Positions 33,243 through 55,787 of a DNA stretch of 64,000 bases are shown here, in pieces. The stretch is from Fidelibacterota bacterium (lineage in GTDB: Bacteria; Fidelibacterota; Marinisomatia; Marinisomatales; TCS55), in contig OZ252221.1 of assembly GCA_965249165.1 (NCBI GenBank), forward strand, positions 945,347-1,009,346. The letters run 5' to 3'. The notes beneath the pieces are model-generated. The model was not told the DNA's origin, searched no databases, and saw nothing but the letters and a program-made list of their open reading frames with translations. The translations under genes and the position numbers were made by a program. Every line of letters begins with the position of its first letter. The first letter of the stretch is position 1.

Positions 33243-33313
33243 GGATATTGCAAGATCATGAACCAGCGGTCGTGGATAAAGCGTTGGCGGAACGTTACAT
33301 GACAAGAGTTTGA
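33243..33313 (+). pseudogene. Detached 3' fragment (last about 22 codons plus stop) of the kynurenine-3-monooxygenase-like gene
   Basis: Encodes LQDHEPAVVDKALAERYMTRV*, identical to the C-terminus of the 48669-49643 ORF. No upstream coding sequence. Confidence 0.85.
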
Positions 33314-33463
33314 TCTACTATGGGGTTTATGTTATTCGATGGTATTGTAAACCCTATTGCTTGCGCACATCATAAGCTGCGCTTGGTTTTTTACTCAATG
33401 GTGTTGTCCTCGATGGTATAGGCATCTCCACTCGTGCATTATTTCCTTAAATTTAACAAAATA

Positions 33464-33492
33464 TTGACGCCCTTTTCCAAAAGGGTTAAACT
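33464..33492 (+). promoter_or_regulatory. Sigma-70-like promoter (TTGACG-17-TAAACT) with an internal palindrome CCCTTTTCCAAAAGGG; duplicated in the right repeat arm
   Basis: -35 at 33464-33469 and -10 at 33487-33492. The spacer carries a perfect 7-2-7 palindrome. The mirror copy at 48559-48587 (minus strand) reads TTGACA-17-TAAACT with a 6-2-6 version of the palindrome. Confidence 0.4.
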
Positions 33493-33574
33493 ATTTCTTG
33501 CCTGTAAATTAGAGAATCTACTAACTGCTTTATCCTATATTATCTTATTTCACTTATTTCACCGAGTCGTATTG

Positions 33575-34117
33575 ATGAAATACAATCACGGAGTTCGAAT
33601 GAAATTTCTTAATGTTGTAGTTTTTCTGTTCTTGTTTAATCAGGTACTTCTGGCTGAAGAAAGCCAACTTCTGGCGGACTCTACTGCTGTCATTTCCAAC
33701 GATTCTTTAGGTGTAACCCGGTATTTAATCCAATTTCCAGAACCGGATTTTGAGGTTGTGCACTTAATCGATTCGATGATTGTTTCCATACCACTCACCG
33801 ATGGGGAGGGTGTTTTGGATGGACAGGAGCTGGATATTAATGCTATGTTGACGGAATGGGTGGGTTTGGTGGTGAGTTGGACTACACCCTGGGAAACGCC
33901 GGGGGGTGATGTAGATGATTTTTATATTACGGGCCGGGTGGATACGTCCACCAGTTGGTTGAGTGTGGATATTTCTCCGCTCTACGTTGCATTATATCAG
34001 GGGTATATTTACGATTATGGTTTTATGGTGAAGCTGGCGGATGAGATGGCCGGGCCACTCTACCTGCCGAATATCAATCAGTCTTTTATTACGGTTTATA
34101 GCAGTGATTTGGAGTAA
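33575..34117 (+). CDS. Small secreted protein of unknown function, first gene of the Rhs operon
   Basis: ATG at 33575 (MKYNHGVRMKFLNVVVFLFLFNQVLLAEES is a signal peptide). The same start region is conserved in the duplicate at 48498. The stop lies 3 nt before the Rhs ATG, and a GGAG inside its last codons serves the Rhs gene. The ORF-track start at 33434 is probably too far upstream. Confidence 0.7.
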   Translation: MKYNHGVRMKFLNVVVFLFLFNQVLLAEESQLLADSTAVISNDSLGVTRYLIQFPEPDFEVVHLIDSMIVSIPLTDGEGVLDGQELDINAMLTEWVGLVVSWTTPWETPGGDVDDFYITGRVDTSTSWLSVDISPLYVALYQGYIYDYGFMVKLADEMAGPLYLPNINQSFITVYSSDLE

Positions 34118-34120: not shown

Positions 34121-37100
34121 ATGAGAATAATCAGTAAAACATTCACGAATTTTATAACCTGTTTTCTATTATCTGCAATGGTGCTCAATGGACAGGATGA
34201 CGACTTCGTGGCACCATTGAAGCTACCGGAATCATCCAGTAGAGATGACGACGGTTCATCGCCTAGTGCCGCACCGAACATAAAGACCTTTGCATTAGAC
34301 CCGAATTTAAAGGGGGCGGTGGGAAACAGCGTGAACCTTTTTAGTGGGGACGTAAATCTGCCGGTGAATCTTGTGTCTTTGCCGGGACTCAATGGATTGG
34401 GGGTGAATGTTACTGCTGTTTATAACAGTAATATTCAAAATCAAGTGGATACGTGGAATCTGACAGCCCCCACTGGTGTACTGGGCTTGGGTTGGAGTTT
34501 GGATTACCCGAAGATTGTGCGGAATCATAAAAATACGGGTACCCGCCATGATGATGAGTTTTATCTGCTGGCCGGTGGTTCGTCAACGCCATTGCTCAGA
34601 ACCGGCACATCTACTAATGGACAGACCTATTATTACCGGGTGAAGAACGACCCCAATCTTGAGATCCGCTACTATCAAGAAGACGCAGATGACACGAATG
34701 GAGACATGGGCTATTGGGAGGTGCTCACCGGCAATGGGATCACGCAGGTGTTTGGTAATACAGATGACTCCAAGCAATTGGGGATTCGCTGGAAGAACTG
34801 GATCGGCAGTAGTATTATTGCCACTAATCAGACCCAATTTGCAATCGTTTGGAATTTGTCCAGTATGCGGGACGATTGGGGAAACGCAATAAATTATGAT
34901 TACGAAAACGTAACCAATACAATAGGTGCCGGAGCAAACGCCAAGGAGTATACGGAGGCATCCTATCTGGGAGAGATACGGGACGTTTATAATCGCAAGG
35001 TGGTATTTAATTATGGGGAAAAATCAGCGGACGAAGAATATCAAGACCCCCATAAGGAGCAGGGCGAACCGGACGCCTACCAAGAACGGTATGAGACCCG
35101 GTATTTACACAATATCGAGGTATACTCTGATGCGAATGTCTCCGATGAACTCTTTTCCATTCATTTTAATTATAATTTTGTCGGCGCTGGTAATCTTCGG
35201 AAACGATTACTGGCGGCCATTTGGCAAACGAATGCCCGGATGGAGTCCCTTCCGCCTCTGAAGTTCACATATTATGCGACGGGTTATCACCGGGGCATGT
35301 TGAAAACAGTGACCTATACCCAGGGTGGTATTACTACCTATACTTATACATCCCAGGATATTTCTTCCGTTGGTGTGAGTGCTGATCGTGATCGTCATGT
35401 TTCCCGTCCCACAGGATATGTTGGGAAACCGGGGATTTTTGTGGGGCATGACTACGTGGTGCTCATTTGGGAGAACGCCAGCGGCACAATTAACCTGGAA
35501 ACGTATATATGGACCGGTCGTTGGGTGAAGACCTTGGATGAAACACTTGATATTGATGATGATTCTGATGCTACTGAATATGAGGTCTTTATCGGGGAGG
35601 ACTATTTTGCTTTGATAGAGAAATTTCATACAACTCAGGGAATAAAGCCAATCCACATATACCACAAAAAGGAGGGGTTAAAAGGGTGGTATTATTATAC
35701 CCACGATTTAATATCCAACCACAGTGGCTGTGCAGATGGTGGCGGAAACAATGAAAATAGAATGAACGTTGCTGTGGGTGATGATTTTATATCGGTTGTA
35801 TCGATAGAACACGGGCGGGAATATAGATTTCAATGGAATGCTCAAGGAGAAACTTGGAATTCTTATGTGAGTGATTGCCGCAACGGCGATGATACGGATG
35901 ATTTTTATGTAGCTGGAACGGGTAATTATTATTTTTTTCATAACGCAATTGGGTATGACAGAATATACTTTAGAAATCGGAATGAGTTGGGTAATTGGAC
36001 AAACAGCTCTTTTTATTTAGGAAGTAATACCTCTGATAACGGCGATTATTATCAGTCTTGGCATTCTGGATCCAGTTTTTTCGTTGGCTTAATTAGAGGG
36101 CATGCTGAAGTGGCCTATACCTGGGACGTGAATTTTCAGGGTTTTCAGCGACATAATTTAGGTTTCCAGGTTAATGACGTTTCACCCACCTTTATCAGAG
36201 GCTCTTTTGTTGGAATCTATGATTCTGGTCCGAATTCGTCTCAATTTATTCGATTTAACGGTTCTTATTGGTTAAATGAAACATTTCCTGGTTATGGCTT
36301 CACAATTGGTGAAGATTTTATGTTGACATCTGGAATCGGTGGAATCATTCGGCTGCTATACAATCCAAACCTGAATGATTATGAAGAGTTTGCAGCTGAT
36401 AATGGTGAATATTATGCATACCTTACTGGCCTAGCAGATCAACCTAAGGTTTCAAATAACTTTGTAGTTGCTTATCATTGTTGTGATGGTGACAATTCTG
36501 CTGGTATTTATGTTCTGTATCGATTTCCAGGTGATTTTGAGTTTAGTGAAATAGCAAATTTTCCGCAAACGTATTCTTCACCAAGAGTTGCCACCGGCTC
36601 CAACTATTTTATCATACAAAATGATGATTCGTATACTTCTCAATTTCATTTTGTTAAAAACGGTGCGCATGTTGCATCGGATGCAGGCTCCGATAACGGG
36701 AAATTTATACATTACTTTGATGAGTATGACTTTCCTGATCCTGTAGGAGCGAATACGGCGGTTGCTATTCGTTCAGGTAACGATGCTACTTTGTATAGAA
36801 TAGTCAATGACGACTTTCAAGGAGCGATCGGAGACGTAGTGGTCAGTACGATGGCCATGGACGATGGCTATAATTCAGTTTCAACCAGTTATGAGTTTCA
36901 ATATGGTGTATCGGATCCATCGGGGACAGTGGCCCAATACAACAAAGTCATCGTCTATCCCGGTGGTGATACACTGAACGGGTTTACGGAACATTATTTT
37001 TTCAATGGCCTGGAGACCGATGAAAGTGCAGCACCATTCCCCGCGGGTAGCAATGTTACCAATGCCGACTCCTATTATGGTTTAATGACTGGGCGACCGT

Positions 37101-40100
37101 ATAAAATAATCGCTAAAGATGCTAATGGCGAGGTGGTGTCCACCACCGAGAACTACTGGTTTGTCACCGAATTTGATATAGGCCCCCGTAAAATAGGTCA
37201 TTATACCCGCCAACGAAAACAAGTCAGTACCACCGATGGAATCACCAAGACGGTTGAAAGTACCTACGCTGAAAACAGTGGGTATTTAACCAGAACACAA
37301 ACGACCAATAGCAATGGCGATATTTTAACCAAGTCCTTTACGCATTTTAAGAATGCCTATGGGGATATTGACAATCTCAAGTCTCCGATAGTCAAAACGA
37401 TTACAAGAAACACCCGGAGCGGAACTGCAACCACCACATCCGCCACGGCCACCACCTGGAAGGAATGGTCACCAGGGAAATGGGCCCCCAATAAGACTTA
37501 TACCTGGAATGGGAATGGGAGTGTTATATTTAATTTTAGTGCCTGGAGCGGGAATGTTGAGCCACCATCAAGATGGCTTAAGGTGTCACAGGTATTGGAG
37601 CGCACGTCCTTTGGAGCAGTGCGAAGATCAGCAGATGTAGATAGTACTATTTCGTCCGTTATATTTGATCAGACCCATAAACGCCCTGTGGCTGTATTCA
37701 GTGCGGCGAATATTTCCGATAATTCCATTGGGAACGAGGCCGGGTACATTGGATTTGAAAGCGGGTATAGTACCAACAGTCATCCGGATAATGATTACTG
37801 GTCTATGCCTCCAGCCAATACATTTTCAACAGATGCCCATAGCGGGAAGTACAGCCGCAAGGTTATAGCCGGTACCCCCCGTTATGGACCCACCCGAGAT
37901 TTTCGACCGGATGACCAGTATGGAACCTATGTATTGTCTTGTTGGGTGAAAACAGAGGCGGGCTACAATTCATCGACAAACAGTAGCTTTAAACTCCATA
38001 CCAAACGAGATAGTGGGAATAACTCTCTCTATCCGAGTATAGCGGCGGCTTGGATTTCTATTCCGATTGATGACACCGATGGAAAATGGGAATACCTTGA
38101 AGTGGCGCTTGATCTGGGACGGGTTCGGGAATTGGGTGATATTCCCGCCAGTGAACTATTACGATTGCGGACGTTTACGGCCAATCAAGACCCCGATCAT
38201 TACTTTCTAGTGGATGACATCACCTTCCGGCCCCTTGATTCCGGTTTTTCTGCTACGATCATTGATCCTGAAACGCGTCGGGTCACAGCCCGGCTGGGGA
38301 ATAACGGCGAGACCATGCGCACGGTCTATGACGACTTTAACCGTCCGCTTGCCAGTATTGGTCCAGATGAACAGGTGAATGCCCTCACCATGCCCTACTA
38401 TTCCAGATATTACAATTGGGGTGTCCTTTCGGGCAGTTGGACTGAATATGATCCTGATGATCCAAACAGTGTATTATCGATCACGGCACAAAACGGCGGC
38501 ATTTATGATGGGTTTGATGATGGGGATGCAGATGGTTGGACCCTTGCACCTACAAGTCATTGGCAGGTGGAAGATGGAAAATTGAAAATAAATGCACATA
38601 GTGGTGACGAGACAGCGACGGCAGTGCTTGAGAGTTCCGGAGCGGAGGCTATGGCTGTATCCATCAGTGCAGCAGCCGAATTTAATGATTCATTGGGAGT
38701 TGTGGGCATGGCGGTGGGAGATTATTCTATTCGTTGTAACCTTATCGGTCCGGACTTTGCACGCTGGAGATTGTATCATGATGGTAACGCATTGGTCTCG
38801 GGTACCGGTCATGCATACGGTAGAAAGTGGACATTCATTATATCCCAGGGGATGATCCACTTTTTTGTGGATAGGGAGTTGAGATTAGAGTATGAGGATG
38901 CGAATGCTGTGGGCGGAGAGGTGGTCTTGTTTGCAGAACCATGGTACGGAGAAATGGCCGAATTTGACAATGTTTTGGTGATCCACGATCCGGTGGTGAG
39001 TCGGGTTTATTCTGATGGGATGGGCAAAACGATTCAATCGCAACGCTTGGATGGGGATGATATTATTTTATCCATGCCCTATTATGATGAAATGAACCGG
39101 GCAGCGGTGGGTTTTAAACCCATCAAGTTGGATAATCACGCCCTGGAATATAACTCGGACCTGGTGACCGCTTTTGATTGGGCTGCGGGGACATATACGG
39201 GTACGATGAATAATTTTCATCTGGCCGACAGTGGCTTTAACTATACGCGCTGGGAGTATGAAACCACGCCCTTAGCGCGGGTGGTAAAAGAGAGCCTTCC
39301 TGGAAGCGGCTTTCAAATCGGCAGCGGGAAAGAGATCAGCTATGAGTATTTGCCTGATCCGGGCGAGACATTTACGGGCATTAACTTCGACCCGGAAGAA
39401 CACACTATCCGCAAAATTGAAGATCCGGAGGGGGTTAAATCGGTGGTTGTAGAAGATAAACTGAACAAAACGCTGCTGAAGCAATTGGAAGATGAAGATA
39501 CACCGACAACCTATAGTTACAACGTTAAGGGACAAGTGGATACGATCTATCTACCGAATTATTTTGATTCGACTGTCCCCAGTAACGAGGAGTTTACAAT
39601 TGAGATGACCTACGATCATTTTGGGCGGCTGAAGAGCAAAGCCACCCCGGATGGTGGTACGGAGCGGTTTATCTATCACAACCGGAATGGGCAGTTGCGC
39701 TTTATGCAGGATGGTGTTGGCGATAATTTTAATAAGGTAAATTATTATAAATATGACCGGATCGGGCGCATCAAAGAAGCAGGACATTTTGCCTATAGCG
39801 GAAGTTTGAACAACCTCCAGGATGAAGCGAACACGATCCCGGATTACCCGACCAATGCCCCCACCTGGCGGAAGAAGTATTATTACGATCGGGCGGGTGA
39901 GACCGGATCCACCATCAATTATAAGGGTCGACTGTGGCGGATAGAAACGAATAATGATAATAGTAGTGATGTGGAGGTGGTAGAGACGTTCCGGTATAAT
40001 CGTGGGGGTGAGATTGTGGAAAAGGAGTTGCTGGTGAGCGATTATGACAGTACCCAGCACTATAGCACTAGCTACGAATACAATAATGTGGGCAATGTGA

Positions 40101-42220
40101 TTCAAATCGATTACCCGGATGATGAAACGATGGTCGCCTATACCTATAATCAGTTGGGTCAGCTAATATCTGTGGGGAATGATTCAGACTCCTACCGCTA
40201 CGCCATCTATATTTATAACCCGGATGGCAGCATTAATCGGGAAATCCTGTACCAAAGCGTAGGTTCATTGAGTCACAATTTTAGATATAACTCCCAGGGG
40301 CGCTTAGACGGAATCGGTCCCCAGGGTGGCTTTGGCTTCCATGAATCAATCGATTATTCCTATTCTGGAAATATAACTACCACCGGCATGGCCCTGGCGC
40401 AACAGGGTCCTGATACATTGGAAGGTGTGATTTATAATTACCGAACCAACTATACTTACGATGATCTGGGTCAACTGACCGGGGCAGTACACAATGATAA
40501 TGCCTTAACAGATTTGACGATGACCTACGATCCCAATGGGAATATTCTTACCCAGAACAATAGAACGTATAATTATATAAGCGGGACGAATAAAGTAAGG
40601 AACACCGATGGCAGCGGCAACGATTACACCTACAATGCCAATGGGAATATAACCAGGGCGAATCCAAAAAATATCCAACAGATCAGATACGATGCTTTTA
40701 CGCAAATGACCCGAAGGATTTTGACTAGTCGGAATATAACGTTCCAGTATGATGGCAGTAACCGCAGAGTATTTAGGAACCACCGTGTAAGAGTATATCC
40801 TCCGGGGGGAGGAGACAATCCGGTCATGAAGCAGAAATACCAAAAGGGACCATCGGAAGAAGCGGTGATCAAAGATCAGTATTCCGGTTTTTCTCCCGCT
40901 CAAGTGGAGTCAAAGATGATGGGCGCAATCACATGGATATACAATAATAAGCTCTATCTCCATGGTGAGAATGCGTATCCGTTGGTGGAGTACATCACCA
41001 GCACCAACGAATCGGAGACGAAGCAAGTGTATATCTACGGAGCCACGGGGTTGATCGCCACCCACCGAGACAGTACCACTTATACCATTATCAAAGACCA
41101 TCTGGGCAGTACCCGGCTGGTGCTGGACGAGGATTGGGCGGTGGTGAGCTGGTATGACTACGCGCCTTTTGGCAAGATCAGCCGCGGCGGAACCGGGACA
41201 AAGTTAAACTACCGCTACACCGGACAGGAAAGGGATGGTGCCACGGGGTTAATGAACTACCGCGCCCGAATGTACGACCCGGATTTAGGAAGATTTTATG
41301 CGGTGGATCCGGCAGGGCAGTTGGCCAGCCCTTACGCTTACGCCGGAAATAATCCCCTTATTATGGTGGACCCGGATGGGGAGTGGTTTTTTCTAATTCC
41401 CATGCTTTTTGGGGGCGCGGTGAATTATGCGATGTCAGATAATCCAACCTGGAAAGATTTTGCCATTGGTGCTGCACAAGGACTTCTAACTTATTATTCA
41501 GGTGGTGGTGGATTTGGGTTTTCAATGAATTCAGCAGCACAAGCAGGTTTAGACAAGTTTGCCATGAACACATTTGCGAGTATGGTTTGGGATGTGGGAT
41601 ATCGTAAATCTGGACTATCTGAACAGGTACAAAAAGAATTCGGCATGGGTTTTGACATTGCTTTTAACTTACTTGGCCCGGCAGCCATTGAAGGTGGATT
41701 GGCTAGTGCCGTTGGCCCTGCTGAAGGTGTAACATATGACGAAAGTATGACCTTAGAAGAAGTTCACGAAAAAGGGATGGTAAATTACCCTACAAAGAAA
41801 GCAGATATAGATTTAATGGAAGAAGGTGCGCATTTTGATGACACTGGTGCGGATTGGAAAAGAGGATACACAGTTTCTCATGGTGGTAAAACAGCATTTG
41901 TAAAAGAAAAGCCGGCTTATTTAAAGAAAAAAATTCTGGGTACTCATTATGGAACTTCAATAGGACCCAATACTGAAGATTTTACAAATGATCCTTTTTT
42001 TATTGGTTTGATTACAGGTGATGGTTATTTATCAGGTGGGATTAGTCATCAATCGAATACAAGAGCTTTGAACGCATTATTTGGCACATCCTTTTTACCG
42101 AGTCAAGTATTGGGTCAGAACTTTAACATTGGTTTTTATCAGTCTTTTATGGGGGCTGGGCATATGCCCTGGTCATTACAGCTGCATATGACTGGGAATT
42201 ATGTTAGGGCTTATGAATAG
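34121..42220 (+). CDS. Giant SpvB-N-terminal / Rhs (YD-repeat) polymorphic toxin, 2,699 aa, with C-terminal toxin tip
   Basis: - Signal-like N-terminus.
- SpvB-type block NLFSGDVNLPVNLVSLPGLNGLGVNVTAVYNS.
- Two jelly-roll-like inserts (about 37740-38240 and 38490-38990).
- Many YD repeats (YTYNQLGQL, YTYDDLGQL, MTYDPNGNI, YTYNANGNI...).
- Rhs core end: DHLGSTRLVLDE...YDYAPFGK...YRYTGQERDGATGLMNYRARMYDPDLGRFYAVDP...NNPLIMVDPDGEW (DPxGE at about 41370-41384).
- A 278-aa tip follows the core. Confidence 0.93.
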   Translation: MRIISKTFTNFITCFLLSAMVLNGQDDDFVAPLKLPESSSRDDDGSSPSAAPNIKTFALDPNLKGAVGNSVNLFSGDVNLPVNLVSLPGLNGLGVNVTAVYNSNIQNQVDTWNLTAPTGVLGLGWSLDYPKIVRNHKNTGTRHDDEFYLLAGGSSTPLLRTGTSTNGQTYYYRVKNDPNLEIRYYQEDADDTNGDMGYWEVLTGNGITQVFGNTDDSKQLGIRWKNWIGSSIIATNQTQFAIVWNLSSMRDDWGNAINYDYENVTNTIGAGANAKEYTEASYLGEIRDVYNRKVVFNYGEKSADEEYQDPHKEQGEPDAYQERYETRYLHNIEVYSDANVSDELFSIHFNYNFVGAGNLRKRLLAAIWQTNARMESLPPLKFTYYATGYHRGMLKTVTYTQGGITTYTYTSQDISSVGVSADRDRHVSRPTGYVGKPGIFVGHDYVVLIWENASGTINLETYIWTGRWVKTLDETLDIDDDSDATEYEVFIGEDYFALIEKFHTTQGIKPIHIYHKKEGLKGWYYYTHDLISNHSGCADGGGNNENRMNVAVGDDFISVVSIEHGREYRFQWNAQGETWNSYVSDCRNGDDTDDFYVAGTGNYYFFHNAIGYDRIYFRNRNELGNWTNSSFYLGSNTSDNGDYYQSWHSGSSFFVGLIRGHAEVAYTWDVNFQGFQRHNLGFQVNDVSPTFIRGSFVGIYDSGPNSSQFIRFNGSYWLNETFPGYGFTIGEDFMLTSGIGGIIRLLYNPNLNDYEEFAADNGEYYAYLTGLADQPKVSNNFVVAYHCCDGDNSAGIYVLYRFPGDFEFSEIANFPQTYSSPRVATGSNYFIIQNDDSYTSQFHFVKNGAHVASDAGSDNGKFIHYFDEYDFPDPVGANTAVAIRSGNDATLYRIVNDDFQGAIGDVVVSTMAMDDGYNSVSTSYEFQYGVSDPSGTVAQYNKVIVYPGGDTLNGFTEHYFFNGLETDESAAPFPAGSNVTNADSYYGLMTGRPYKIIAKDANGEVVSTTENYWFVTEFDIGPRKIGHYTRQRKQVSTTDGITKTVESTYAENSGYLTRTQTTNSNGDILTKSFTHFKNAYGDIDNLKSPIVKTITRNTRSGTATTTSATATTWKEWSPGKWAPNKTYTWNGNGSVIFNFSAWSGNVEPPSRWLKVSQVLERTSFGAVRRSADVDSTISSVIFDQTHKRPVAVFSAANISDNSIGNEAGYIGFESGYSTNSHPDNDYWSMPPANTFSTDAHSGKYSRKVIAGTPRYGPTRDFRPDDQYGTYVLSCWVKTEAGYNSSTNSSFKLHTKRDSGNNSLYPSIAAAWISIPIDDTDGKWEYLEVALDLGRVRELGDIPASELLRLRTFTANQDPDHYFLVDDITFRPLDSGFSATIIDPETRRVTARLGNNGETMRTVYDDFNRPLASIGPDEQVNALTMPYYSRYYNWGVLSGSWTEYDPDDPNSVLSITAQNGGIYDGFDDGDADGWTLAPTSHWQVEDGKLKINAHSGDETATAVLESSGAEAMAVSISAAAEFNDSLGVVGMAVGDYSIRCNLIGPDFARWRLYHDGNALVSGTGHAYGRKWTFIISQGMIHFFVDRELRLEYEDANAVGGEVVLFAEPWYGEMAEFDNVLVIHDPVVSRVYSDGMGKTIQSQRLDGDDIILSMPYYDEMNRAAVGFKPIKLDNHALEYNSDLVTAFDWAAGTYTGTMNNFHLADSGFNYTRWEYETTPLARVVKESLPGSGFQIGSGKEISYEYLPDPGETFTGINFDPEEHTIRKIEDPEGVKSVVVEDKLNKTLLKQLEDEDTPTTYSYNVKGQVDTIYLPNYFDSTVPSNEEFTIEMTYDHFGRLKSKATPDGGTERFIYHNRNGQLRFMQDGVGDNFNKVNYYKYDRIGRIKEAGHFAYSGSLNNLQDEANTIPDYPTNAPTWRKKYYYDRAGETGSTINYKGRLWRIETNNDNSSDVEVVETFRYNRGGEIVEKELLVSDYDSTQHYSTSYEYNNVGNVIQIDYPDDETMVAYTYNQLGQLISVGNDSDSYRYAIYIYNPDGSINREILYQSVGSLSHNFRYNSQGRLDGIGPQGGFGFHESIDYSYSGNITTTGMALAQQGPDTLEGVIYNYRTNYTYDDLGQLTGAVHNDNALTDLTMTYDPNGNILTQNNRTYNYISGTNKVRNTDGSGNDYTYNANGNITRANPKNIQQIRYDAFTQMTRRILTSRNITFQYDGSNRRVFRNHRVRVYPPGGGDNPVMKQKYQKGPSEEAVIKDQYSGFSPAQVESKMMGAITWIYNNKLYLHGENAYPLVEYITSTNESETKQVYIYGATGLIATHRDSTTYTIIKDHLGSTRLVLDEDWAVVSWYDYAPFGKISRGGTGTKLNYRYTGQERDGATGLMNYRARMYDPDLGRFYAVDPAGQLASPYAYAGNNPLIMVDPDGEWFFLIPMLFGGAVNYAMSDNPTWKDFAIGAAQGLLTYYSGGGGFGFSMNSAAQAGLDKFAMNTFASMVWDVGYRKSGLSEQVQKEFGMGFDIAFNLLGPAAIEGGLASAVGPAEGVTYDESMTLEEVHEKGMVNYPTKKADIDLMEEGAHFDDTGADWKRGYTVSHGGKTAFVKEKPAYLKKKILGTHYGTSIGPNTEDFTNDPFFIGLITGDGYLSGGISHQSNTRALNALFGTSFLPSQVLGQNFNIGFYQSFMGAGHMPWSLQLHMTGNYVRAYE

Positions 42221-42245
42221 TGATACAACTCATTGTTGACTGCTT

Positions 42246-42674
42246 ATGAAAAGGAAAATCTTATTGGGTATTGTTATGATTGAAATATGTGGCATTCTTG
42301 GATGTTTTTATGTTTATCCATTTTATGTAAGAAAGGAAATAAAAGGTGATTATATTTATGGAGTCTATGGAGATCAAAATGAAAGTGATTCATTACGTCA
42401 TAGTTTCATTTTTGCAGAATCAAAAGAATCATTCCAATGGACAAGACATAAATATGAGCCAATGAGGCCAGATGAACACTACATTTTTATAGGTGATTCA
42501 ATTAAAGTACTATCGAGTATACCTGTTAAACTGAGAATAAAAAGGGTAAAAATTGACGGAACTACTTATACCAGATATAGATATCCAAATAAATTTTCAA
42601 TGGATGGACCAGTGGATATATATGTGAGAAATAAGATCATAAAATTTATGCACGTAGAGAGATTCAATGAATAA
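42246..42674 (+). CDS. Putative cognate immunity lipoprotein 1 (family paralogue, leader type A)
   Basis: Lies immediately downstream of the Rhs stop. N-terminal hydrophobic leader ending ILGC (lipobox-like). Conserved core HYIFIGDS..VL...PVK..I..VKIDGTTYTRYRYP....DGP.DIYVRN..IKFM shared by six paralogues. Confidence 0.65.
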   Translation: MKRKILLGIVMIEICGILGCFYVYPFYVRKEIKGDYIYGVYGDQNESDSLRHSFIFAESKESFQWTRHKYEPMRPDEHYIFIGDSIKVLSSIPVKLRIKRVKIDGTTYTRYRYPNKFSMDGPVDIYVRNKIIKFMHVERFNE

Positions 42675-42740
42675 CTCTGTTGGATTTGCTCCGGTTTAGT
42701 TGCCATCTTAATTTTTTTGACTAGTAAATTTGACAAAAAA

Positions 42741-43036
42741 ATAGTCGGCACTCATTACGGGGTGTCGATAGGACCCAATACTGAAGATTTTACAAATGAT
42801 CCTCTTCTTAAGGGTTTGTTTACCGGTAATGGTTATTTATCAGGTGGAATTAGTCATCAATCGAATACAAGAGCTTTGAACGCATTATTTGGCACATCCT
42901 TTTTACCGAGTCAAGTATTGGGTCAAAACTGCTCATGGCTTTTATCAATCTTTTTTTGGAGCTGGGCATATGCCCTGGTCATTACAGCTGCATATGTATG
43001 GGAATTATGCTAGGGCTTATGAGTAATACAACTAAT
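42741..43036 (+). pseudogene. Orphan toxin-tip copy 1, 5'-truncated and frameshifted
   Basis: Homology to the main tip starts at ...KKIVGTHYGVSIGPNTEDFTNDP. The frame is lost after ...SQVLGQN (indel relative to the other copies), but the original stop context GCTTATGAGTAA is retained at 43025-43036. Confidence 0.75.
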
Positions 43037-43048
43037 TGAGGACTTCTT

Positions 43049-43495
43049 ATGAGAATGCAAATTTTATTTCTTACTGGTATGATTGGAACCTGTGTCTTTT
43101 TTGGATGTTTTCCTCCATTTTTTAGAATGTATGAAATAAAAGATGATTATGTTCATATAACACAATATATAGATAAAAGTGATTCAGTAAATCACTACTA
43201 CTATTACTATTTTGCGGAGTCAGAAAAAACACTCCAAGATGAAGGATATAGAAAGTACATGGAGCCAAATAGTTATACTATTTTTATAGGTGATTCAGTA
43301 GAAGTACTCTTGAGCTTACCTTTTAAACCAAAAATAAGAACGGTAAAAATTGACGGTACTACTTATACTAGACATCGATGTCCGAAAAAAATTTTTACCG
43401 GAATGGATGGACCATTAGATATATATGTAAGAAACAATACCATAAAATTTATGCGAATAAAGTTATTTGCAGAAGGGATGGGACCACAACGGTAA
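43049..43495 (+). CDS. Putative immunity lipoprotein 2 (leader type B)
   Basis: Leader MRMQILFLTGMIGTCVFFGC. Same conserved core as the other paralogues. The C-terminus ...KLFAEGMGPQR overlaps the next toxin-tip ORF. Confidence 0.6.
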   Translation: MRMQILFLTGMIGTCVFFGCFPPFFRMYEIKDDYVHITQYIDKSDSVNHYYYYYFAESEKTLQDEGYRKYMEPNSYTIFIGDSVEVLLSLPFKPKIRTVKIDGTTYTRHRCPKKIFTGMDGPLDIYVRNNTIKFMRIKLFAEGMGPQR

Positions 43496-43952
43496 AACAT
43501 TAGATCAAATTCACAAAGAAGGAATGAAAGGTTACAATGAAAAATATGTAGAATACATGGTAGAAGGTTTTCACTTTAATCAAACTGGTGCGGATTGGAA
43601 GAGAGGATACACAGTTTCTCATGATGGTAAAACAGCTTATGTAAAAGAAAAGACAGCTTATAGAGGTCTAGGGACTCATTATGGAACTTCAACATTACCA
43701 AATACTAAAGATTTTACAAATGATCCTTTTCTTAAGGGTTTGTTTACCGGTGATGGTTATTTATCACGCGGCATTAGTCATCAATCGAATACAAGAGCAT
43801 TAAACGCATTATTTGGCACATCCTTTTTACCGAGTCAAGTATTGGGGCAAAACTTTAACATTGGTTTTTATCAGTCATTTATGGGAGCTGGGCATATGCC
43901 CTGGTCTCTACAGCTGCATATGTATGGGAATTATCATAGGGCTTATGAGTGA
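43467..43952 (+). CDS. Orphan toxin-tip copy 2 (intact 161-codon ORF, no Rhs core or secretion part)
   Basis: Aligns with main tip residues ...TLEEVHEKGM... to the C-terminal ...NY.RAYE. The ORF-track start is a TTG, and it is uncertain whether the copy is translated independently. Confidence 0.55.
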   Translation: MQKGWDHNGKTLDQIHKEGMKGYNEKYVEYMVEGFHFNQTGADWKRGYTVSHDGKTAYVKEKTAYRGLGTHYGTSTLPNTKDFTNDPFLKGLFTGDGYLSRGISHQSNTRALNALFGTSFLPSQVLGQNFNIGFYQSFMGAGHMPWSLQLHMYGNYHRAYE

Positions 43953-43974
43953 TACAACTAATTGAGGACTACTT

Positions 43975-44430
43975 ATGAAAAAGCGAATCTTATTGGGTAT
44001 TGTTATGATTGAAATATGTGGTATTCTGGGGTGTTTTTATCCATTTTATAAAACATATGAAATAAAAGATGATTATGTTCATATAATAAGATATGAAGAT
44101 CAAAGTGATTCAGTAGATCACTACTACTATTACTATTTTGCGGAATCAGAAAAACCACTCCAGAATCCAATAGATAGAAACAACCTAATGAAGCCAAATA
44201 GATATACCATTTTTATAGGTGATTCAGTAGAAGTACTCTTGAGCTTACCTTTTAAACCAAAAATAAGAACGGTAAAAATTGACGGCACTGCTTATACTAG
44301 ATATAGATATTCAGATGATTTTCATGGACGAGTGGATGTTAATGGACGATTGGATGTTTATATGAGAAATAATACTATTAAATTTATGCGAATAAAGTTA
44401 TTTGCAGAAGGGATGGGACCACAACGGTAA
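43975..44430 (+). CDS. Putative immunity lipoprotein 3 (leader type A)
   Basis: Leader MKKRILLGIVMIEICGILGC. The N-terminal half differs from paralogues 1, 2 and 4, while the C-terminal part is near-identical to paralogue 2. Confidence 0.6.
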   Translation: MKKRILLGIVMIEICGILGCFYPFYKTYEIKDDYVHIIRYEDQSDSVDHYYYYYFAESEKPLQNPIDRNNLMKPNRYTIFIGDSVEVLLSLPFKPKIRTVKIDGTAYTRYRYSDDFHGRVDVNGRLDVYMRNNTIKFMRIKLFAEGMGPQR

Positions 44431-44887
44431 AACATTAGATCAAATTCACAAAGAAGGAATGAAAGGTTACAATGAAAAATATGTAGAATACATGGTAGAA
44501 GGTTTTCACTTTAATCAAACTGGTGCGGATTGGAAGAGAGGATACACAGTTTCTCATGATGGTAAAACAGCTTATGTAAAAGAAAAGACAGCTTATAGAG
44601 GTCTAGGGACTCATTATGGAACTTCAACATTACCAAATACTAAAGATTTTACAAATGATCCTTTTCTTAAGGGTTTGTTCACCGGTGATGGTTATTTATC
44701 ACGCGGCATTAGTCATCAATCGAATACAAGAGCTTTGAACGCATTATTTGGCACATCCTTTTTACCGAGTCAAGTATTGGGCCAAAACTTTAACATTGGT
44801 TTTTATCAGTCTTTTATGGGGGCTGGGCATATGCCCTGGTCATTACAGCTGCATATGTATGGGAATTATCATAGGGCTTATGAGTGA
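44402..44887 (+). CDS. Orphan toxin-tip copy 3 (protein identical to copy 2)
   Basis: 161-aa translation identical to 43467-43952. I counted 8 nucleotide differences between the two copies, and all are synonymous. Confidence 0.55.
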   Translation: MQKGWDHNGKTLDQIHKEGMKGYNEKYVEYMVEGFHFNQTGADWKRGYTVSHDGKTAYVKEKTAYRGLGTHYGTSTLPNTKDFTNDPFLKGLFTGDGYLSRGISHQSNTRALNALFGTSFLPSQVLGQNFNIGFYQSFMGAGHMPWSLQLHMYGNYHRAYE

Positions 44888-44909
44888 TACAACTAATTGT
44901 TGACTGCTT

Positions 44910-45359
44910 ATGAGAAGCCAAATCTTATTTCTTACTGCAATGATCGCAACCTGTGTTATTTGTGGGTGTATTTACCCGTTTTCTGTAAGAAAAGAAATAA
45001 AAGATGATTTTGTTTATGTAGCACGCTATGATAAAGATCAAAATATAAGTGACTCATTATATAACTATCACGAATATTATTTTGCAGAATCAAAAAAAGC
45101 ACTTCAGGGTTCAAGAATTGGATATAGATATGACCCAATGGAGCCCAATAGACACTACATTTTTATAGGTGATTCAGTAGAAATACTCTTAAGGATACCT
45201 ATTAAACCGATAATAAAAACAGTAAAAATTCTCGGCATTACTTATACTAGATATCGATATTTATTAATTGATCCTATTGATGGACCATTAGATATATATG
45301 TGAGAAATAAGATCATAAAATTTATGCGAGTAAAGTTATTTGCAGAAGGGAGGATATAA
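44910..45359 (+). CDS. Putative immunity lipoprotein 4 (leader type B)
   Basis: Leader MRSQILFLTAMIATCVICGC; conserved family core; ends ...KLFAEGRI. Confidence 0.6.
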   Translation: MRSQILFLTAMIATCVICGCIYPFSVRKEIKDDFVYVARYDKDQNISDSLYNYHEYYFAESKKALQGSRIGYRYDPMEPNRHYIFIGDSVEILLRIPIKPIIKTVKILGITYTRYRYLLIDPIDGPLDIYVRNKIIKFMRVKLFAEGRI

Positions 45360-45436
45360 CATATGACGAAAGTATGACCTTAGAAGAAGTTCACGAAAAA
45401 GGGATGGTAAATTACATTTAAAGTGAAGCATATAAA

Positions 45437-45832
45437 ATGGAAGAAGGTGCGCACTTTGATCGAACTGATGTCGATTGGAAGAGAGGATACACAGTTTCTC
45501 ATGATGGTAAAACAGCATTTATAAAAGAAAAGACGGCTTATAGAGGTCTAGGTACTCATTATGGAGCGTCGATAGGACCCAATACTGAAAATTTTAAAAA
45601 TGATCATCTTCTTAAGGGTTTGTTTACAGGTGATGGTTATTTATCACGTGGGATTAGTCATCAATCGAATACAAGAGCTTTGAACGCATTATTTGGCACA
45701 TCCTTTTTACCGAGTCAAGTATTGGGCCAAAACTTTAACATTGGGTTTTATCAGTCTTTTATGGGGGCTGGGCATATGCCCTGGTCACTACAGCTTCATA
45801 TGTATGGGAATTATCATAGGGCTTATGAGTGA
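45437..45832 (+). CDS. Orphan toxin-tip copy 4 (131-codon ORF from an internal ATG; upstream homologous part interrupted by a stop)
   Basis: Homology to the main tip begins at about 45353 (TYDESMTLEEVHEKGMVNY). An in-frame TAA sits at 45419-45421. The ORF resumes at MEEGAHFD... and runs to the conserved ...NYHRAYE. Confidence 0.5.
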   Translation: MEEGAHFDRTDVDWKRGYTVSHDGKTAFIKEKTAYRGLGTHYGASIGPNTENFKNDHLLKGLFTGDGYLSRGISHQSNTRALNALFGTSFLPSQVLGQNFNIGFYQSFMGAGHMPWSLQLHMYGNYHRAYE

Positions 45833-45854
45833 TACAACTCATTGAGGACTACTT

Positions 45855-46301
45855 ATGAAAAAGCGAATCTTATTGGTTATTGTTATGATTGAAATGTGTG
45901 GCATTCTTGGATGTTTTTATGTTTATCCATTTTATGTAAGAAAGGAAATAAAAGGTGACTATATTTGTAAAGCATATTATAATGTACCACATTATACAGA
46001 TAAAATTGAAAGTAACTTAGATATTCAATATTTCTATTTTGCAGAATCAAAAGAATTATTACAGAATGCAGAATATAAATATGAGCCAATGAACCCAAAT
46101 AACCACTACATTTTTATAGGTGATTCAGTAGAAGTACTCTCGATTATACCGGTTAAACCGAAAATAAAAAGGGTAAAAATTGACGGGACTACTTATAATA
46201 GATATAGATATCCATATGAATTTGCAATGGAAGGACCAGTGGATATATATGTGAGAAATAAGATCATAAAATTTATGCACGTAGAGATATTTACAGAATA
46301 A
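45855..46301 (+). CDS. Putative immunity lipoprotein 5 (leader type A, closest to paralogue 1)
   Basis: Leader MKKRILLVIVMIEMCGILGC. The C-terminus ...IKFMHVEIFTE and the downstream sequence (CTCTGTTGGACTTGCTCCGGTTTAGTTG...) mirror those of paralogue 1. Confidence 0.6.
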   Translation: MKKRILLVIVMIEMCGILGCFYVYPFYVRKEIKGDYICKAYYNVPHYTDKIESNLDIQYFYFAESKELLQNAEYKYEPMNPNNHYIFIGDSVEVLSIIPVKPKIKRVKIDGTTYNRYRYPYEFAMEGPVDIYVRNKIIKFMHVEIFTE

Positions 46302-46408
46302 CTCTGTTGGACTTGCTCCGGTTTAGTTGTCATCTTAATTTTCTTGACTAACAAATAGGTAGATCGTTTGAAGATGACAACTAACTTATCGCTGGCGCTA
46401 AAATAGGA

Positions 46409-46885
46409 ATGGTTACAATGGGAAGGCAAATCTTATTCCTTATTGTTATGATTGCAATGTGTGTTATTGTTGGATGTATTCCTCAATATTATGTTTGGAT
46501 ACCCCAAGAAATAAAAGATGATTATGTTTATATAATACCTTATACAGAGCAAGATGAAGATCAAACTAAAAGTGACTCATCATTTCAATTTTTCTATTTT
46601 GCAGAATCAAAAGAATCAATACCATCGGAAATTAAATCACAATATGGAATATTGAGCTATGACCCAATGGATCCGAATAGCCACTATATTTTTATAGGTG
46701 ATTCATTCGAAGTACTCTCAAATATGCCTGTTAAACCGGAAATACAAACGGTAACAATTGATGGAACTACTTATACTGTATATCGATATTCAAGTGAATT
46801 TACTGGTAAAATGGATGGACCATTGAATATATATGTGAGAAATAATACCATAGAATTTATGCGCATAATGTTATTTGTAAGATAA
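46409..46885 (+). CDS. Putative immunity lipoprotein 6 (most divergent paralogue; no toxin tip upstream)
   Basis: Leader ...GRQILFLIVMIAMCVIVGC. Conserved core HYIFIGDSFEVLSNMPVKPEIQTVTIDGTTYTVYRY...DGPLNIYVRNNTIEFMRI. Confidence 0.6.
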   Translation: MVTMGRQILFLIVMIAMCVIVGCIPQYYVWIPQEIKDDYVYIIPYTEQDEDQTKSDSSFQFFYFAESKESIPSEIKSQYGILSYDPMDPNSHYIFIGDSFEVLSNMPVKPEIQTVTIDGTTYTVYRYSSEFTGKMDGPLNIYVRNNTIEFMRIMLFVR

Positions 46886-48031
46886 CTCTGTTGATATTTG
46901 CGGGTATACATTATCATTTTATTACGATCAATATGACTTACAACATTTGGATCAACTGGTGTCTGTGGGGAATGATTCAGACTCCTACCGCTACGCCATC
47001 TATATTTATAACCCGGATGGCAGCATCAATCGGGAAATCCTTTACCAAAGCGTAGGTTCATTGAGTCACAATTTTACCTATAACTCCCAGGGGCGCTTAA
47101 AGTTAATCAATCATTCCGATATTAGTTTTGGGATCCGGGAGAGCATTACCTATACATCCGGGGGCAATATCGACTCCACCGTGATAACTCTTGGTCGGAA
47201 TGGCGGCGGTGGCGGTGGCGGAAATGATGATAGTTCGGAGGACAATACTATCCCCGAACTATATTTTTATGATTATACCACTAACTATACTTACGATGAT
47301 CTGGGTCAGTTGACCGGGGCAGTACACAATGATAATGCCCTAGCAGATTTGACGATGACCTACGACCCCAATGGGAATATTCTCACCCAGAACAATAGAA
47401 CGTATAATTATATAAGCGGGACGAATAAAGTAAAGAACACCGATGGCAGCGGCAACGACTACACCTACAATGCCAATGGGAATATAACCAGGGCGAATCC
47501 AAAAAATATCCAACAGATCAGATACGATGCTTTTACGCAAATGACCCGAAGGATTTTGACTAGTCGGAATATAACGTTCCAGTATGATGGCAGTAACCGC
47601 AGAGTATTTAGGAACCACCGTGTAAGAGTATATCCTCCGGGGGGAGGAGACAATCCGGTCATGAAGCAGAAATACCAAAAAGGACCATCGGAAGAAGCGG
47701 TGATCAAAGATCAGTATTCCGGTTTTTCTCCCGCTCAAGTGGAGTCAAAGATGATGGGCGCAATCACATGGATATACAATAATAAGCTCTACCTCCATGG
47801 TGAGAATGAGTATCCGTTAGTGGAGTACATCACCAGCACCAACGAATCGGAGACGAAGCAAGTGTATATCTACGGAGCCACGGGGTTGATCGCCACCCAC
47901 CGAGACAGTACCACTTATACCATCATCAAAGACCATCTGGGCAGTACCCGGCTGGTGCTGGACGAGGATTGGGCGGTGGTGAGCTGGTATGACTATGCGC
48001 CTTTTGGCAAGATCAGCCGCAGCGGAACCGT
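46881..48031 (+). pseudogene. Orphan Rhs core fragment (duplicate of main-gene residues about 2005-2363) lacking N-terminus, core end and toxin tip
   Basis: Near-identical to 40150-41190 except for a replaced patch (about 47095-47280, including a GGC/GGT-encoded Gly run). Homology stops at ...PFGKISR(S/G)GT at about 48031. The ORF then reads through antisense sequence of the small-protein gene to a stop at 48143. Confidence 0.85.
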
Positions 48032-48036
48032 GGAAT

Positions 48037-48498
48037 TTACGCGATATTACGTTGGTACGTCCAAGCAAATACGTAAAGCATACGGAGAAGCGGAGAAATA
48101 TCCACACTCAGCCAACTGGCTGACGTATCCACCGTGCCAGTAATATAAAAATCATCTACATCACCCCCCGGCATTTCCCAGGGCGCAGTCCAACTTACCA
48201 CCGAACCAACCCATTCCGTCAGCATAGCATTAATATCCAGCTCTTGTCCATCCAAAACACCACCTCCATCGGTGAGTGGTATCGAGACAATCATCGAATC
48301 GATTAAGTGTACAATCTCAAAATCCGGTTCCGGAAATTGGATTAAATACCGGGTTACACCCAAAGAATCGTTGGAAATAACAGTGGAGGACTCAGCAAGG
48401 AGCTGGCTTTCTTCAGCCATAAGCGCCTGACTAAACAACAACAGAAAAACTACAACATGAAGACACTTCATTTTAATTCCATGATTGTGTTTCATCAA
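48037..48498 (-). pseudogene. 3'-truncated duplicate of the small secreted-protein gene (right repeat arm)
   Basis: The first roughly 135 codons parallel 33575-33981 (MMKHNHGIKMKCLHVVVFLLLFSQALMAEESQLL...SVDISPL). The tail LRMLYVFAWTYQRNIA is unrelated and overlaps the orphan rhs fragment. Confidence 0.75.
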
Positions 48499-48743
48499 TA
48501 CGACTCGAGAAAATATGCTAAAGAAGTTAGTAGATTCTCTAATTTACAGGCAAGAGATAGTTTAACCCTTTTGGAAAAGGATGTCAATATTTTGTTAAAT
48601 TTAAGGAAATAATGCACGAGTGGAGATGCCACGATTATACCATCGAATAACAGAAACCGCATAGTAGATCAAACTCTTGTCATGTAACGTTCCGCCAACG
48701 CTTTATCCACCACCGCTGGTTCATGATCTTGCAATATCTTATC
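48089..48743 (-). repeat. Right arm of the large inverted repeat (partner 33243-33981)
   Basis: See the left arm. The inner boundary is at the shared ...GAGTGTGGATATTTCTCCGCT. The outer boundary lies inside the 3' end of the monooxygenase gene. Confidence 0.9.
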
Positions 48744-49684: not shown

Positions 49685-50524
49685 TTAATTATTTTTTTGA
49701 GCAATTCCGACTAAAAGACTTCCAAGATTAAAAACATTTGATAAACGATATGAAATTCTATTAATAATAGGCTGTTTAATACGTATTTGTCCCCATACAT
49801 GATGATTATTTGGATAGGGGGAAAGTAATTTCATTTTCATATCAACAATCTCAAATAATTTCTTCATGGATTTATAAGAATAAGCTCTCATATGTCTTAC
49901 AGGTTGTATGCAACCATAATCTTTTGAAATTATTGGAGATATCTTTCGGAAACTTGAAATAAGAGAATTATGATTAGGAACTTCAAAATGTAATAGACCG
50001 CCAGGTCGTAATGCATTAATGATATCTTTTAATAAATCTTTAGGGTTTTCAAAATGTTCCAAAACTTGACAGGCATAGATTAAATCAAAACATTCTTTAT
50101 AGTCCGAAATTTTATTATTCTTTATTGGAATATTCTGTTTCTGTCCCCAATCTAACCATTTTCGATTAATTTCTAAACCAATCCAGGAAATATCATTATC
50201 TTTAAATGTGCTATAACAAATACCTGGTCCACTTCCTATTTCCATTACATTTTTTAATGGACTCCCCTTGAATTTTTCATAAAAATAAATGCGGTTTTTA
50301 CATTTTTCACTAGCTATTATTTTACATCCATTAAAAGTATTTAATAACATTGATAAATTTTCATCAAGTGAAGGTGTTGTATCAGAGTCAATTTCTCTAT
50401 GAATTATTTCTGGACAGTAAAACATGTTACAAATTTTGCACGAAATAATTTTTTGATTAGACCAAACAAATGAGGTTAAACGTGTTTTTTCATCGCAAAT
50501 GGGGCATGGAATTAAAAAATTCAT
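49685..50524 (-). CDS. Class I SAM-dependent methyltransferase with N-terminal Cys4 zinc-ribbon-like motif
   Basis: CPICDE...CKICN at the N-terminus, SAM motif I VMEIGSGPG, post-I/II blocks FDLIYACQVLEHF and LRPGGLLHFEVPN. Confidence 0.75.
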   Translation of the reverse strand: MNFLIPCPICDEKTRLTSFVWSNQKIISCKICNMFYCPEIIHREIDSDTTPSLDENLSMLLNTFNGCKIIASEKCKNRIYFYEKFKGSPLKNVMEIGSGPGICYSTFKDNDISWIGLEINRKWLDWGQKQNIPIKNNKISDYKECFDLIYACQVLEHFENPKDLLKDIINALRPGGLLHFEVPNHNSLISSFRKISPIISKDYGCIQPVRHMRAYSYKSMKKLFEIVDMKMKLLSPYPNNHHVWGQIRIKQPIINRISYRLSNVFNLGSLLVGIAQKNN

Positions 50525-50600
50525 TATTTTATTTTTCTATTAAGCAGTTTTTATAATCATTAATTATATTTCAAAATCATTTATCACATTTATTTTAGCT

Positions 50601-51998: not shown

Positions 51999-52028
51999 CA
52001 GAATAATAAATAAATTTTTCCAGCATCA

Positions 52029-53584: not shown

Positions 53585-53615
53585 AGTTTAATTCAATTTC
53601 ATTAAGGATTAAATG

Positions 53616-54491: not shown

Positions 54492-54534
54492 CTATTATCT
54501 CACGAATTATTTAATATATACTATCAACTTGTTT

Positions 54535-55782: not shown

Positions 55783-55787
55783 CTAAT

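Follow-up and report, generated by a model that had tools for sequence, protein, structure and literature searches.

The orphan toxin-immunity modules of Rhs and contact-dependent growth inhibition (CDI) systems arise by C-terminal displacement (PMC3150448, PMC3967940), and displacement is also the origin given for such modules in Jackson 2009, as that work is cited in PMC5361080. Here we describe an rhs locus on contig OZ252221.1 of a Fidelibacterota bacterium, contained in a stretch of 64,000 nucleotides (nt) that was analyzed as a whole and is called the window below. In this locus a main rhs toxin gene is followed by an array in which copies of its C-terminal toxin tip (T1, the end of the main toxin itself, to T5) are interleaved with paralogous small genes (I1 to I6). 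Much of this arrangement is as in the known modules. Specifically, the main rhs core ends in a DPxG motif and is followed by a variable toxin with a small gene directly downstream, and further along the same strand there are toxin fragments lacking a promoter and an export signal that have small genes of their own, together with an orphan core fragment. However, there are differences. The orphan tips are of one family with the main tip and have no core homology upstream of them, and the locus has a regular period of ~935 nt in which each small gene runs at its 3' end directly into a tip.

Three other described systems resemble the array. In type VII secretion system (T7SS) loci, strings of esaG and tipC immunity paralogues recombine with one another and fragments of the tspA toxin gene lie inside the tsaI cluster, an organization that has been read as an immunity repertoire against variant toxins (PMC9484751). 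As in these strings, one polymorphic toxin family is here faced by many tandem mosaic paralogues with conserved crossover blocks, and the fragments of a second tspA copy in the tsaI cluster have their counterpart in the interleaved tips. In contrast to them, the toxin is an Rhs protein and not an LXG/T7SS substrate, the host is probably diderm, the small genes code for predicted lipoproteins, and a tip fragment precedes almost every I gene instead of occurring once per cluster. Homogeneous polyimmunity loci, defined by at least four tandem same-strand paralogues and proposed to be a pre-emptive backup against non-kin toxins (PMC3482391), likewise consist of tandem same-strand paralogues of a single immunity family. 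They differ from the present array in that the latter is linked to a toxin gene of its own and has toxin fragments between its members, and in that the I family is not among the catalogued Imm families. Finally, the immunity arrays of the Vibrio cholerae type VI secretion system (T6SS) are built by sequential effector displacement and have been attributed to horizontal acquisition rather than to duplication (PMC5361080). There too, when a new effector-immunity module arrives, old immunity genes are kept downstream and may be accompanied by the displaced 3' end of an old effector, much as at the junction of I1, its flank and T2, whereas the period, the shared junctions and the matching synonymous divergence of our locus point to amplification of whole units besides displacement. 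With polyimmunity loci, the esaG/tipC/tsaI strings and the Vibrio arrays already published, the original prediction from the DNA sequence overstated its case when it called a conserved toxin with a diversifying immunity repertoire the reverse of the usual picture.

The explanation that we favor, and hold to be probable, is that of an Rhs toxin with a homogeneous orphan tip/immunity array that is in recombinational flux and serves as an immunity stockpile. For the small proteins we infer an immunity function and a lipoprotein localization, and likewise for the toxin the site of its action and for the array the benefit of stockpiling.

A tandem array of toxin tips and small genes

The main gene is a genuine Rhs polymorphic toxin gene, as originally predicted, with a match to the TIGR03696 core domain that is far above the cut-off (Table 1) and with YD repeats that score 35.8 bits against TIGR01643 (cut-off 15.8). 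Pfam adds SpvB (25.7 bits) and DUF6443 (40.2 bits), along with a weak RHS_repeat match of 15.5 bits that is under the cut-off of that model. The N-terminus resembles a signal peptide and is followed by the SpvB-like domain. The core domain ends exactly at the ...MVDPDGEW motif that marks where the variable toxin region begins, and from there ...NNPLIMVDPDGEW is followed by 279 amino acids (aa) with no family match in Pfam or NCBIfam. Pfam found no PAAR domain in the protein that would mark it as a T6SS effector. The C-terminal toxin would be a two-part one, made of a Gly/Ala-rich pre-tip domain and a tip of 165 aa. The pre-tip domain is unrepeated in the array and is conserved in P0015, a 742-aa rhs fragment elsewhere on the same contig, as well as in the distant homologue P0018.

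Repeat finding across 41.7-46.9 kb gave direct-repeat families with a start-to-start spacing of 808-945 nt, where full units of a tip and a small gene have a period of 924-945 nt and the longest exact repeat, of 300 nt (43445 = 44380), is well above chance. The tip copies were defined by translation in the tip frame and by nucleotide alignment, and the three approaches together bear out the earlier claim of a tandem array of tip and small gene. The four further tips that had been predicted are all there, as one half copy with a frameshift (T2), two near-identical copies (T3 and T4) and one copy with an in-frame stop codon (T5), so that two of the four extra tips are broken. In its shifted frame T2 still codes for ...GFYQSFFGAGHMPWSLQLHMYGNYARAYE, the C-terminus of the family. 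T3 and T4 are 98% identical in nucleotide sequence, code for the same protein and have TTG as their sole possible start codon. The 5' part of T4 lies within the 300-nt tract that is identical to the I2/T3 junction and its 3' part is nearer to T5. The first 59 nt of T5 are identical to T1, and exact tracts of 59-92 nt are common to T1 and T4/T5.

The description of the repeated element as one toxin domain did not survive this comparison. T1 and T3 are 76% identical, their first 47 codons are strongly different with a nonsynonymous divergence (dN) of 0.42 and a synonymous divergence (dS) of 0.73, and a third toxin allele is carried by P0015. The tips therefore represent at least three alleles that have a variable first third and a constrained last third, the last 65 tip codons being nearly fixed between copies, and are not one toxin. 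As is expected of orphan rhs modules, T2-T5 lack an Rhs shell, lie on the same strand and are each followed by a small gene. No core-encoding homology was found upstream of the orphan tips, as homology to the main gene starts in the tip or at its edge. The sequence upstream of T3-T5 is instead the 3' end of the preceding small gene, and core homology downstream of the main gene is confined to the tip-less fragment at 46947-48143. Dosage amplification, which had been offered as one of two functions for the array, does not fit copies that have diverged, that have neither an Rhs shell nor an export signal and that are broken in two of four cases; immunity stockpiling is the better of the two ideas.

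The small genes I1-I6 are all intact and 48-75% identical in protein sequence. This agrees with the prediction of six paralogues, as does the sixth, which has nothing tip-like before it. In addition to these six same-strand paralogues there are at least four more on the same contig. I1 starts 25 nt past the main rhs gene's stop codon, and the stop codon of I4 is the TAA at which the exact identity between T5 and T1 starts. I3 contains an 18-nt tandem duplication (44324-44358, 1.9 copies) that adds ...VDVNGR... in a variable loop. When I-family sequences from three lineages are aligned, the lipobox Cys is invariant in 13 of 13. Neither the small-gene family nor the tip family gave a match in Pfam, NCBIfam or PDB with single sequences and profiles, and an Rfam search gave no match.

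A conserved 22-nt spacer containing GAGGA had been reported between each tip copy and the small gene after it. This holds for I2, I3 and I5, which are preceded by ATTGAGGACT(A/T)CTT, and fails for I1 and I4, where a second variant, ATTGTTGACTGCTT, has no GAGGA. A Shine-Dalgarno-like motif of any kind is present in only 7 of the 36 window genes, and GAGGA was on that ground rejected as a meaningful ribosome-binding site. Internal sigma-70-like promoters in the array were likewise rejected, with fewer matches than in shuffled sequence, and so was the fusion of an I gene with the next tip by programmed frameshifting, given that the tip is in the +1 frame and that there is no slippery or stalling motif.

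Table 1. Positions of the rhs gene, toxin tips, small genes and flanking features in the window
Feature	Position	Strand	Description
Main rhs gene	34121..42220	+	2699 aa; signal peptide, SpvB-like domain, DUF6443, YD repeats, Rhs core, C-terminal toxin region
RHS repeat-associated core domain	41159..41380	+	aa 2347-2420; TIGR03696 75.4 bits (cut-off 32.5)
Pre-tip domain	41381..41722	+	aa 2421-2534; Gly/Ala-rich, moderately hydrophobic
T1	41723..42220	+	165-aa end of main toxin
I1	42246..42674	+	142 aa, predicted lipoprotein, presumed cognate immunity gene of T1; own stop codon
T2	42741..43026	+	half tip, C-terminal ~95 aa only, starts KKIVGTHYG; frameshift near 42930
I2	43049..43495	+	148 aa, canonical lipobox; ends LFAEGMGPQR; overlaps T3 reading frame
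T3	43467/43473..43952	+	orphan tip; homology to T1 starts at TL(D/E); no Rhs shell
I3	43975..44430	+	151 aa; leader 98% identical to that of I5, core like I2
T4	44402/44408..44887	+	orphan tip; protein identical to T3
I4	44910..45359	+	149 aa, canonical lipobox; ends LFAEGRI
T5	45350..45832	+	orphan tip, T1 type; in-frame TAA 45419-45421, then ATG 45437
I5	45855..46301	+	148 aa; closest relative of I1 (73-75% aa, 85.5% nt identity)
I6	46409..46885	+	155-158 aa, canonical lipobox; no tip upstream
Orphan rhs core fragment	46947..48143	+	92-95% identical to main-gene 40151-40730; YD repeat
Gene upstream of rhs	33434..34117	+	227 aa, internal signal-like hydrophobic stretch; ends 4 nt before rhs start codon
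Inverted repeat, left arm	33244..33981		3' relic of FAD-binding gene, intergenic stretch, 5' two-thirds of gene upstream of rhs
Inverted repeat, right arm	48089..48738		truncated inverted copy of gene upstream of rhs and its upstream region

Selection and recombination in the array

The I genes are clearly maintained by selection. All six reading frames are open at ~12-15% per-lineage divergence, for which a neutral simulation gives a 1-8% chance each, and the gap blocks in the I nucleotide alignment have a length in multiples of 3 in 14 of 14 cases. Overall dN/dS of the I genes is 0.5-1.35. Dividing mean dN by mean dS gives 0.92 for the N-terminal half against 0.68 for the C-terminal core, and local windows of 1.5-2.5 occur in three variable loops, at alignment columns 41-50, 76-85 and 131-140. 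These data bear on the possibility that the array is a neutral by-product of unequal-crossover expansion that gives no benefit, with small genes that drift and extra tips that decay. The small-gene dN/dS of 0.7-1.0, the loss of two of the four extra tips and the great rarity of both families, so that there are few known competitors with this toxin, would all fit such a history. However, six open frames together with an unbroken series of multiple-of-3 indel blocks are very unlikely under neutrality, and a purely neutral origin is also difficult to reconcile with the invariance of the lipobox Cys and of several motifs, with the additional intact paralogues (at least four) on the contig, and with arrays of both families in another lineage (L004, described below). 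We therefore regard it as unlikely.

The last third of the tip is under strong purifying selection. Among T3, T4 and T5 the last 65 codons have 0 nonsynonymous and ~11 synonymous substitutions (pairwise counts of 7, 10 and 5), a pattern with a binomial P of ~3e-8 when 79% of sites are taken as nonsynonymous. The ratio of nonsynonymous to synonymous differences per site (pN/pS) over the stretch from GTHYG to GQN is ~0.25-0.34 in 8 of 10 tip pairs, even with the broken T2 included, and the exceptions are T1-T5 at 0.74 and T3-T4 at 0. This purifying selection on the tips, extending to T2, indicates that the copies derive from expressed alleles or exchange sequence with them.

A comparison of the two halves of each unit points to a common history followed by unequal constraint. 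Tip and small-gene dS agree in three of the six unit pairs, at 0.166 and 0.158 for units 1 and 5, 0.349 and 0.374 for units 1 and 3, and 0.264 and 0.306 for units 3 and 5, indicating that whole units were duplicated and then came under different selective regimes. The respective dN values for tip and small gene are 0.084 and 0.159, 0.160 and 0.310, and 0.062 and 0.279, so that at equal dS the small-gene proteins change 2-4.5x faster, in line with the earlier statement that the tip is the more conserved partner. No such agreement is seen in pairs with unit 4, since T3-type sequence has recently overwritten the 5' part of T4, as shown by the 300-nt exact tract.

The small genes are mosaics produced by recombination between paralogues. 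Nearest neighbors in sliding windows agree with the two leader types and the mosaicism seen originally: I3 has a leader with 98% identity to that of I5 and a core that follows I2, the leader of I2 groups with that of I4, and I1 tracks I5 along its full length. A further example is P0014, which is encoded elsewhere on the contig and equals I5 up to residue ~118, with a tail of the I4 type after that.

Three types of junction connect the small genes with what follows them. In type (a), I1 and I5 end at a natural stop codon and have a ~60-nt 3' flank in common, which after I1 is followed by the half tip T2. This I1/flank/T2 junction looks like a displacement event, and the same transition from I flank to half tip is found again in P0002 and P0011. 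In type (b), at I4/T5, TGCAGAAGG, GAGGA and TATAACATATG... align with TGCTGAAGG and TGTAACATATG... of the main gene. Type (c), at I2/T3 and I3/T4, has the start GCAGAAGGGA in common with type (b). A GC(A/T)GAAGG microhomology is common to the 3' end of the I genes and the 5' edge of the tip, and types (b) and (c) would fit a single join at this microhomology with homologous unequal crossover as the next step. Compared with the main gene, the I4/T5 junction has 5 nt inserted and I2/T3 a net loss of 2 nt, and such small indels are the reason why a tip is now out of frame with the I gene before it. The LFAEG ends of the small genes had been taken as the footprint of the crossover that built the array, corresponding to PAEG in the main gene. 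I2, I3 and I4 do end in this way and a crossover at the microhomology is reasonable, but the codons are not the same as those of PAEG and the next tip is read in another frame. In a different organism a distant member of the family has the end ...LFNDGP, and AEG may therefore be native to the small gene.

These junctions also argue against an assembly artefact in which one toxin-immunity pair, or strain variants of it, was wrongly strung together. Although repeats are hard to assemble and the array contains a 300-nt exact repeat, its copies are set apart by hundreds of differences whose distribution over codon positions is typical of real evolution, each of the three junction types has its own unique flanking sequence, and these junction types are found again in proteins from other parts of the contig (P0014, P0002, P0011). 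The independent assembly of another organism (L004) also has the same interleaved order, and on all these grounds an artefact is extremely improbable.

A different role for the extra tips would be that of a switching reservoir, from which orphan tips are periodically recombined into the main gene so that both the toxin allele and the immunity gene behind it are changed. Activation of orphans through recombination has been shown experimentally for the rhs orphans of Salmonella (PMC3967940), and the exact 59-92 nt tracts that T1 has in common with T4/T5, as well as the absence of nonsynonymous against ~11 synonymous changes in the last 65 codons of the orphan tips, would fit such a reservoir. 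Without homology upstream, though, the variable N-terminal third of T3/T4 cannot enter the main gene by homologous recombination, and the last third, which can be exchanged, is nearly the same protein in all copies, so that a swap changes little. Recombination of the deletion type also removes I1 and so exposes the cell to its siblings, and two of the supposed donors have a stop codon (T5) or a frameshift (T2). We consider switching possible but doubtful.

Relatives of the tips and small genes

In a word-indexed search of 5.8 billion proteins the tip and I families are confined to one contig of 2,141,427 bp, which is this genome. Besides the array this contig encodes at least four further I paralogues, two half tips and P0015. 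When 1.84 billion representatives were searched exhaustively by HMMER with the tip profile, only four proteins matched, of which two (P0018 and P0017) are foreign, while scans of GTDB representative genomes and JGI metagenome contigs with the I and tip profiles found nothing.

The clearest relative is L004 (GCA_017973835.1, 1463 bp). It consists of a tip (78 bits), a gap of 2 nt, and a 144-aa lipoprotein that aligns end-to-end with the I profile (19.5 bits), followed by a half tip (47 bits) and an overlapping I-family lipoprotein (23 bits). Identity is 47% between the two tips and 31% between the two small proteins, so that the small gene is again the more diverged one. The other relative is L001, a JGI metagenome contig whose arrangement is identical in three contigs over the genes they share. 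There P0018 is an orphan toxin region with the pre-tip domain and a tip, and is followed by two tandem lipoprotein-type genes with the lipoboxes LSNC and VTGC. These two lipoproteins are related to each other (BLASTP 3e-7), and their link to the I profile, which plain HMMER did not give, is weak (hhalign P = 0.0019, 83 collinear columns). L001 otherwise, at 1-3562 and 7401-8907, appears as a heterogeneous orphan/polyimmunity region of another organism, with the decayed remains of an rhs core, another orphan toxin at 6620-7369, and a second paralogous family of secreted or lipoprotein-like proteins (194-284 aa) that have a ...KGN(Y/F)LV... motif and no Pfam match.

The linkage of tip and lipoprotein is thus conserved in three lineages, clearly in L004 and weakly in L001, with the small gene directly after the tip, where the spacing runs from an overlap of 20 nt to a gap of 25 nt. 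Of the evidence available on the function of the small proteins this conserved linkage is the best, and it supports their assignment as probable immunity partners. They might instead be accessory factors of the toxin that act in its export, tethering or activation, an idea that would agree with the lack of a match to any immunity family and with the rarity of lipoprotein immunity proteins in the 2012 survey of polymorphic toxins, where Imm65 is the sole such family (PMC3482391). The position directly after the tip in three lineages is, however, the canonical one of an immunity gene, and neither ten diverging copies nor persistence beside broken or absent tips, as for I6, is expected of an accessory factor, which makes this role quite improbable.

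Tips from the three lineages have in common His75, Pro82, Tyr102, Gly106, Asn117, Gly121, Leu125, Pro126, Gln128 and Phe138, as well as Gln140, Ser141, Gly144, Gly146 and three other invariant positions. Half tips of ~96-103 aa begin at the same residue in two distant lineages, with K-K-I-V-G-T-H and a TTG start codon here (T2, P0002 and P0011, of which the P0011 copy is intact) and with K-R-L-P-S-T-H and an ATG start codon in L004 (937-1227). This common start may reflect a boundary between domains or a Lys/A-rich run that is a hot spot of recombination, or it may be where a real small gene begins. It is conceivable, though we give it a low probability, that the conserved half tip is the cassette border of a dedicated system for shuffling I genes, or that it is a small expressed protein such as a decoy or regulator. 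If this were true, it would involve an undescribed envelope-acting enzyme family with a His and Cys-or-Ser pair.

Genomic setting and proposed history

The genes that neighbor rhs are housekeeping genes such as uvrA, ruvB, priA and mutY, and no T6SS genes adjoin it. The array has a GC content of 34%, versus ~40-48% for the remainder of the surrounding window. Directly upstream of rhs is a 227-aa gene (Table 1) with no Pfam or NCBIfam match that is probably co-transcribed with it. The gene is duplicated in an inverted repeat and may be an accessory factor of the Rhs system. The inverted repeat is ~740 bp long and flanks the entire rhs locus as three inverted pairs that are 88-97% complementary. 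It is also seen as protein similarity between the 227-aa gene at 33434-34117 and minus-strand open reading frames at 48037-48662, and it includes the final ~70 nt of the FAD-binding gene. Before any tip is reached the orphan rhs core fragment stops at ~48088, where the right arm starts, and that arm is truncated at its border with the fragment. Overall the repeat looks like the scar of an inversion or of an inverted duplication at a rearrangement hot spot.

Farther away, a very low-GC block at ~50000-58500 (27-29% versus ~43%) codes for glycosyltransferases, epimerases/dehydratases and a polysaccharide flippase-like protein. This block, next to which lies an IS3-family transposase pair (58586-59976), is probably a surface-polysaccharide island of horizontal origin. 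At 25861-28623 there is a 920-aa protein that has an M1 peptidase domain and a long C-terminal region ending in ...WGFYF, which resembles an outer-membrane beta-barrel signal and hints at a diderm host.

The history that we propose for the array would begin with one unit of tip and immunity gene that was joined head to tail at the GC(A/T)GAAGG microhomology. The array would then have grown, shrunk and been reshuffled through unequal homologous crossover and gene conversion, in which ~280 conserved nt at the tip's 3' end, along with conserved blocks within the I genes, would be the tracts of homology. At least one classical displacement event may have taken place as well, leaving I1 with its natural stop codon and flank in front of T2. 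Toxin delivery would be a function of the main gene only, and the orphan tips would be silent remnants or recombination handles that stay functional-looking through descent from, and exchange with, expressed alleles. The I proteins may be envelope-anchored lipoproteins that neutralize the tip outside of the cytoplasm, and from this lipoprotein type of partner we infer that the tip acts in the periplasm or on the cell envelope. The intact and diverging I genes would then form a repertoire against several alleles of this toxin family that occur in relatives.

There are several observations that weigh against this explanation. Strong purifying selection on tips that are presumed to be silent is unlike what simple silent remnants would predict, and I-gene dN/dS near 1 is equally compatible with relaxed constraint and with diversifying selection. 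Swaps from an orphan to the main gene are possible only within the tip and would delete I1, as there is no upstream core homology. In regards to lipoprotein localization, a strict PROSITE-style lipobox pattern is passed by 3 of the 10 paralogues of this genome and failed by the other 7, solely by a Glu at -7 in the hydrophobic core of the leader. AlphaFold models are too weak for use, with a mean predicted local distance difference test (pLDDT) score of 38 for the tip and of 50 for an I protein, where only residues ~80-138 exceed 60; a Foldseek search of PDB with the I model gave nothing under E = 0.6. The comparison with related genomes and metagenomes that the original prediction had called for yielded no related strain among GTDB representatives and JGI metagenome contigs in which copy-number variation or exposure to allelic toxins could be seen. 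Finally, tip position 108 (~42044-42046) is Ser in all of the local copies and Cys in three foreign ones (P0018 and both L004 tips). This position is beside the conserved His/Gln, and the difference may be a nucleophile swap or a sign of a different toxin mechanism in the local tips.

The general picture of polymorphic toxins is unchanged by this locus, each architectural element of which has a published counterpart. What is new here are the toxin and immunity families, orphans that have no core homology, a regular head-to-tail unit, and the occurrence of the same layout in another lineage. The locus indicates that core homology is not needed for same-family toxin-immunity arrays with toxin fragments between the genes to arise in Rhs loci, and that a join at a microhomology with subsequent unequal crossover can form them. 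It also provides a natural specificity series in which related tips and six I paralogues at 48-75% identity lie within 5 kb, with four more paralogues and a third toxin allele elsewhere, and is thereby suited to asking which residues set the specificity between toxin and immunity protein and how fast that specificity drifts after duplication.

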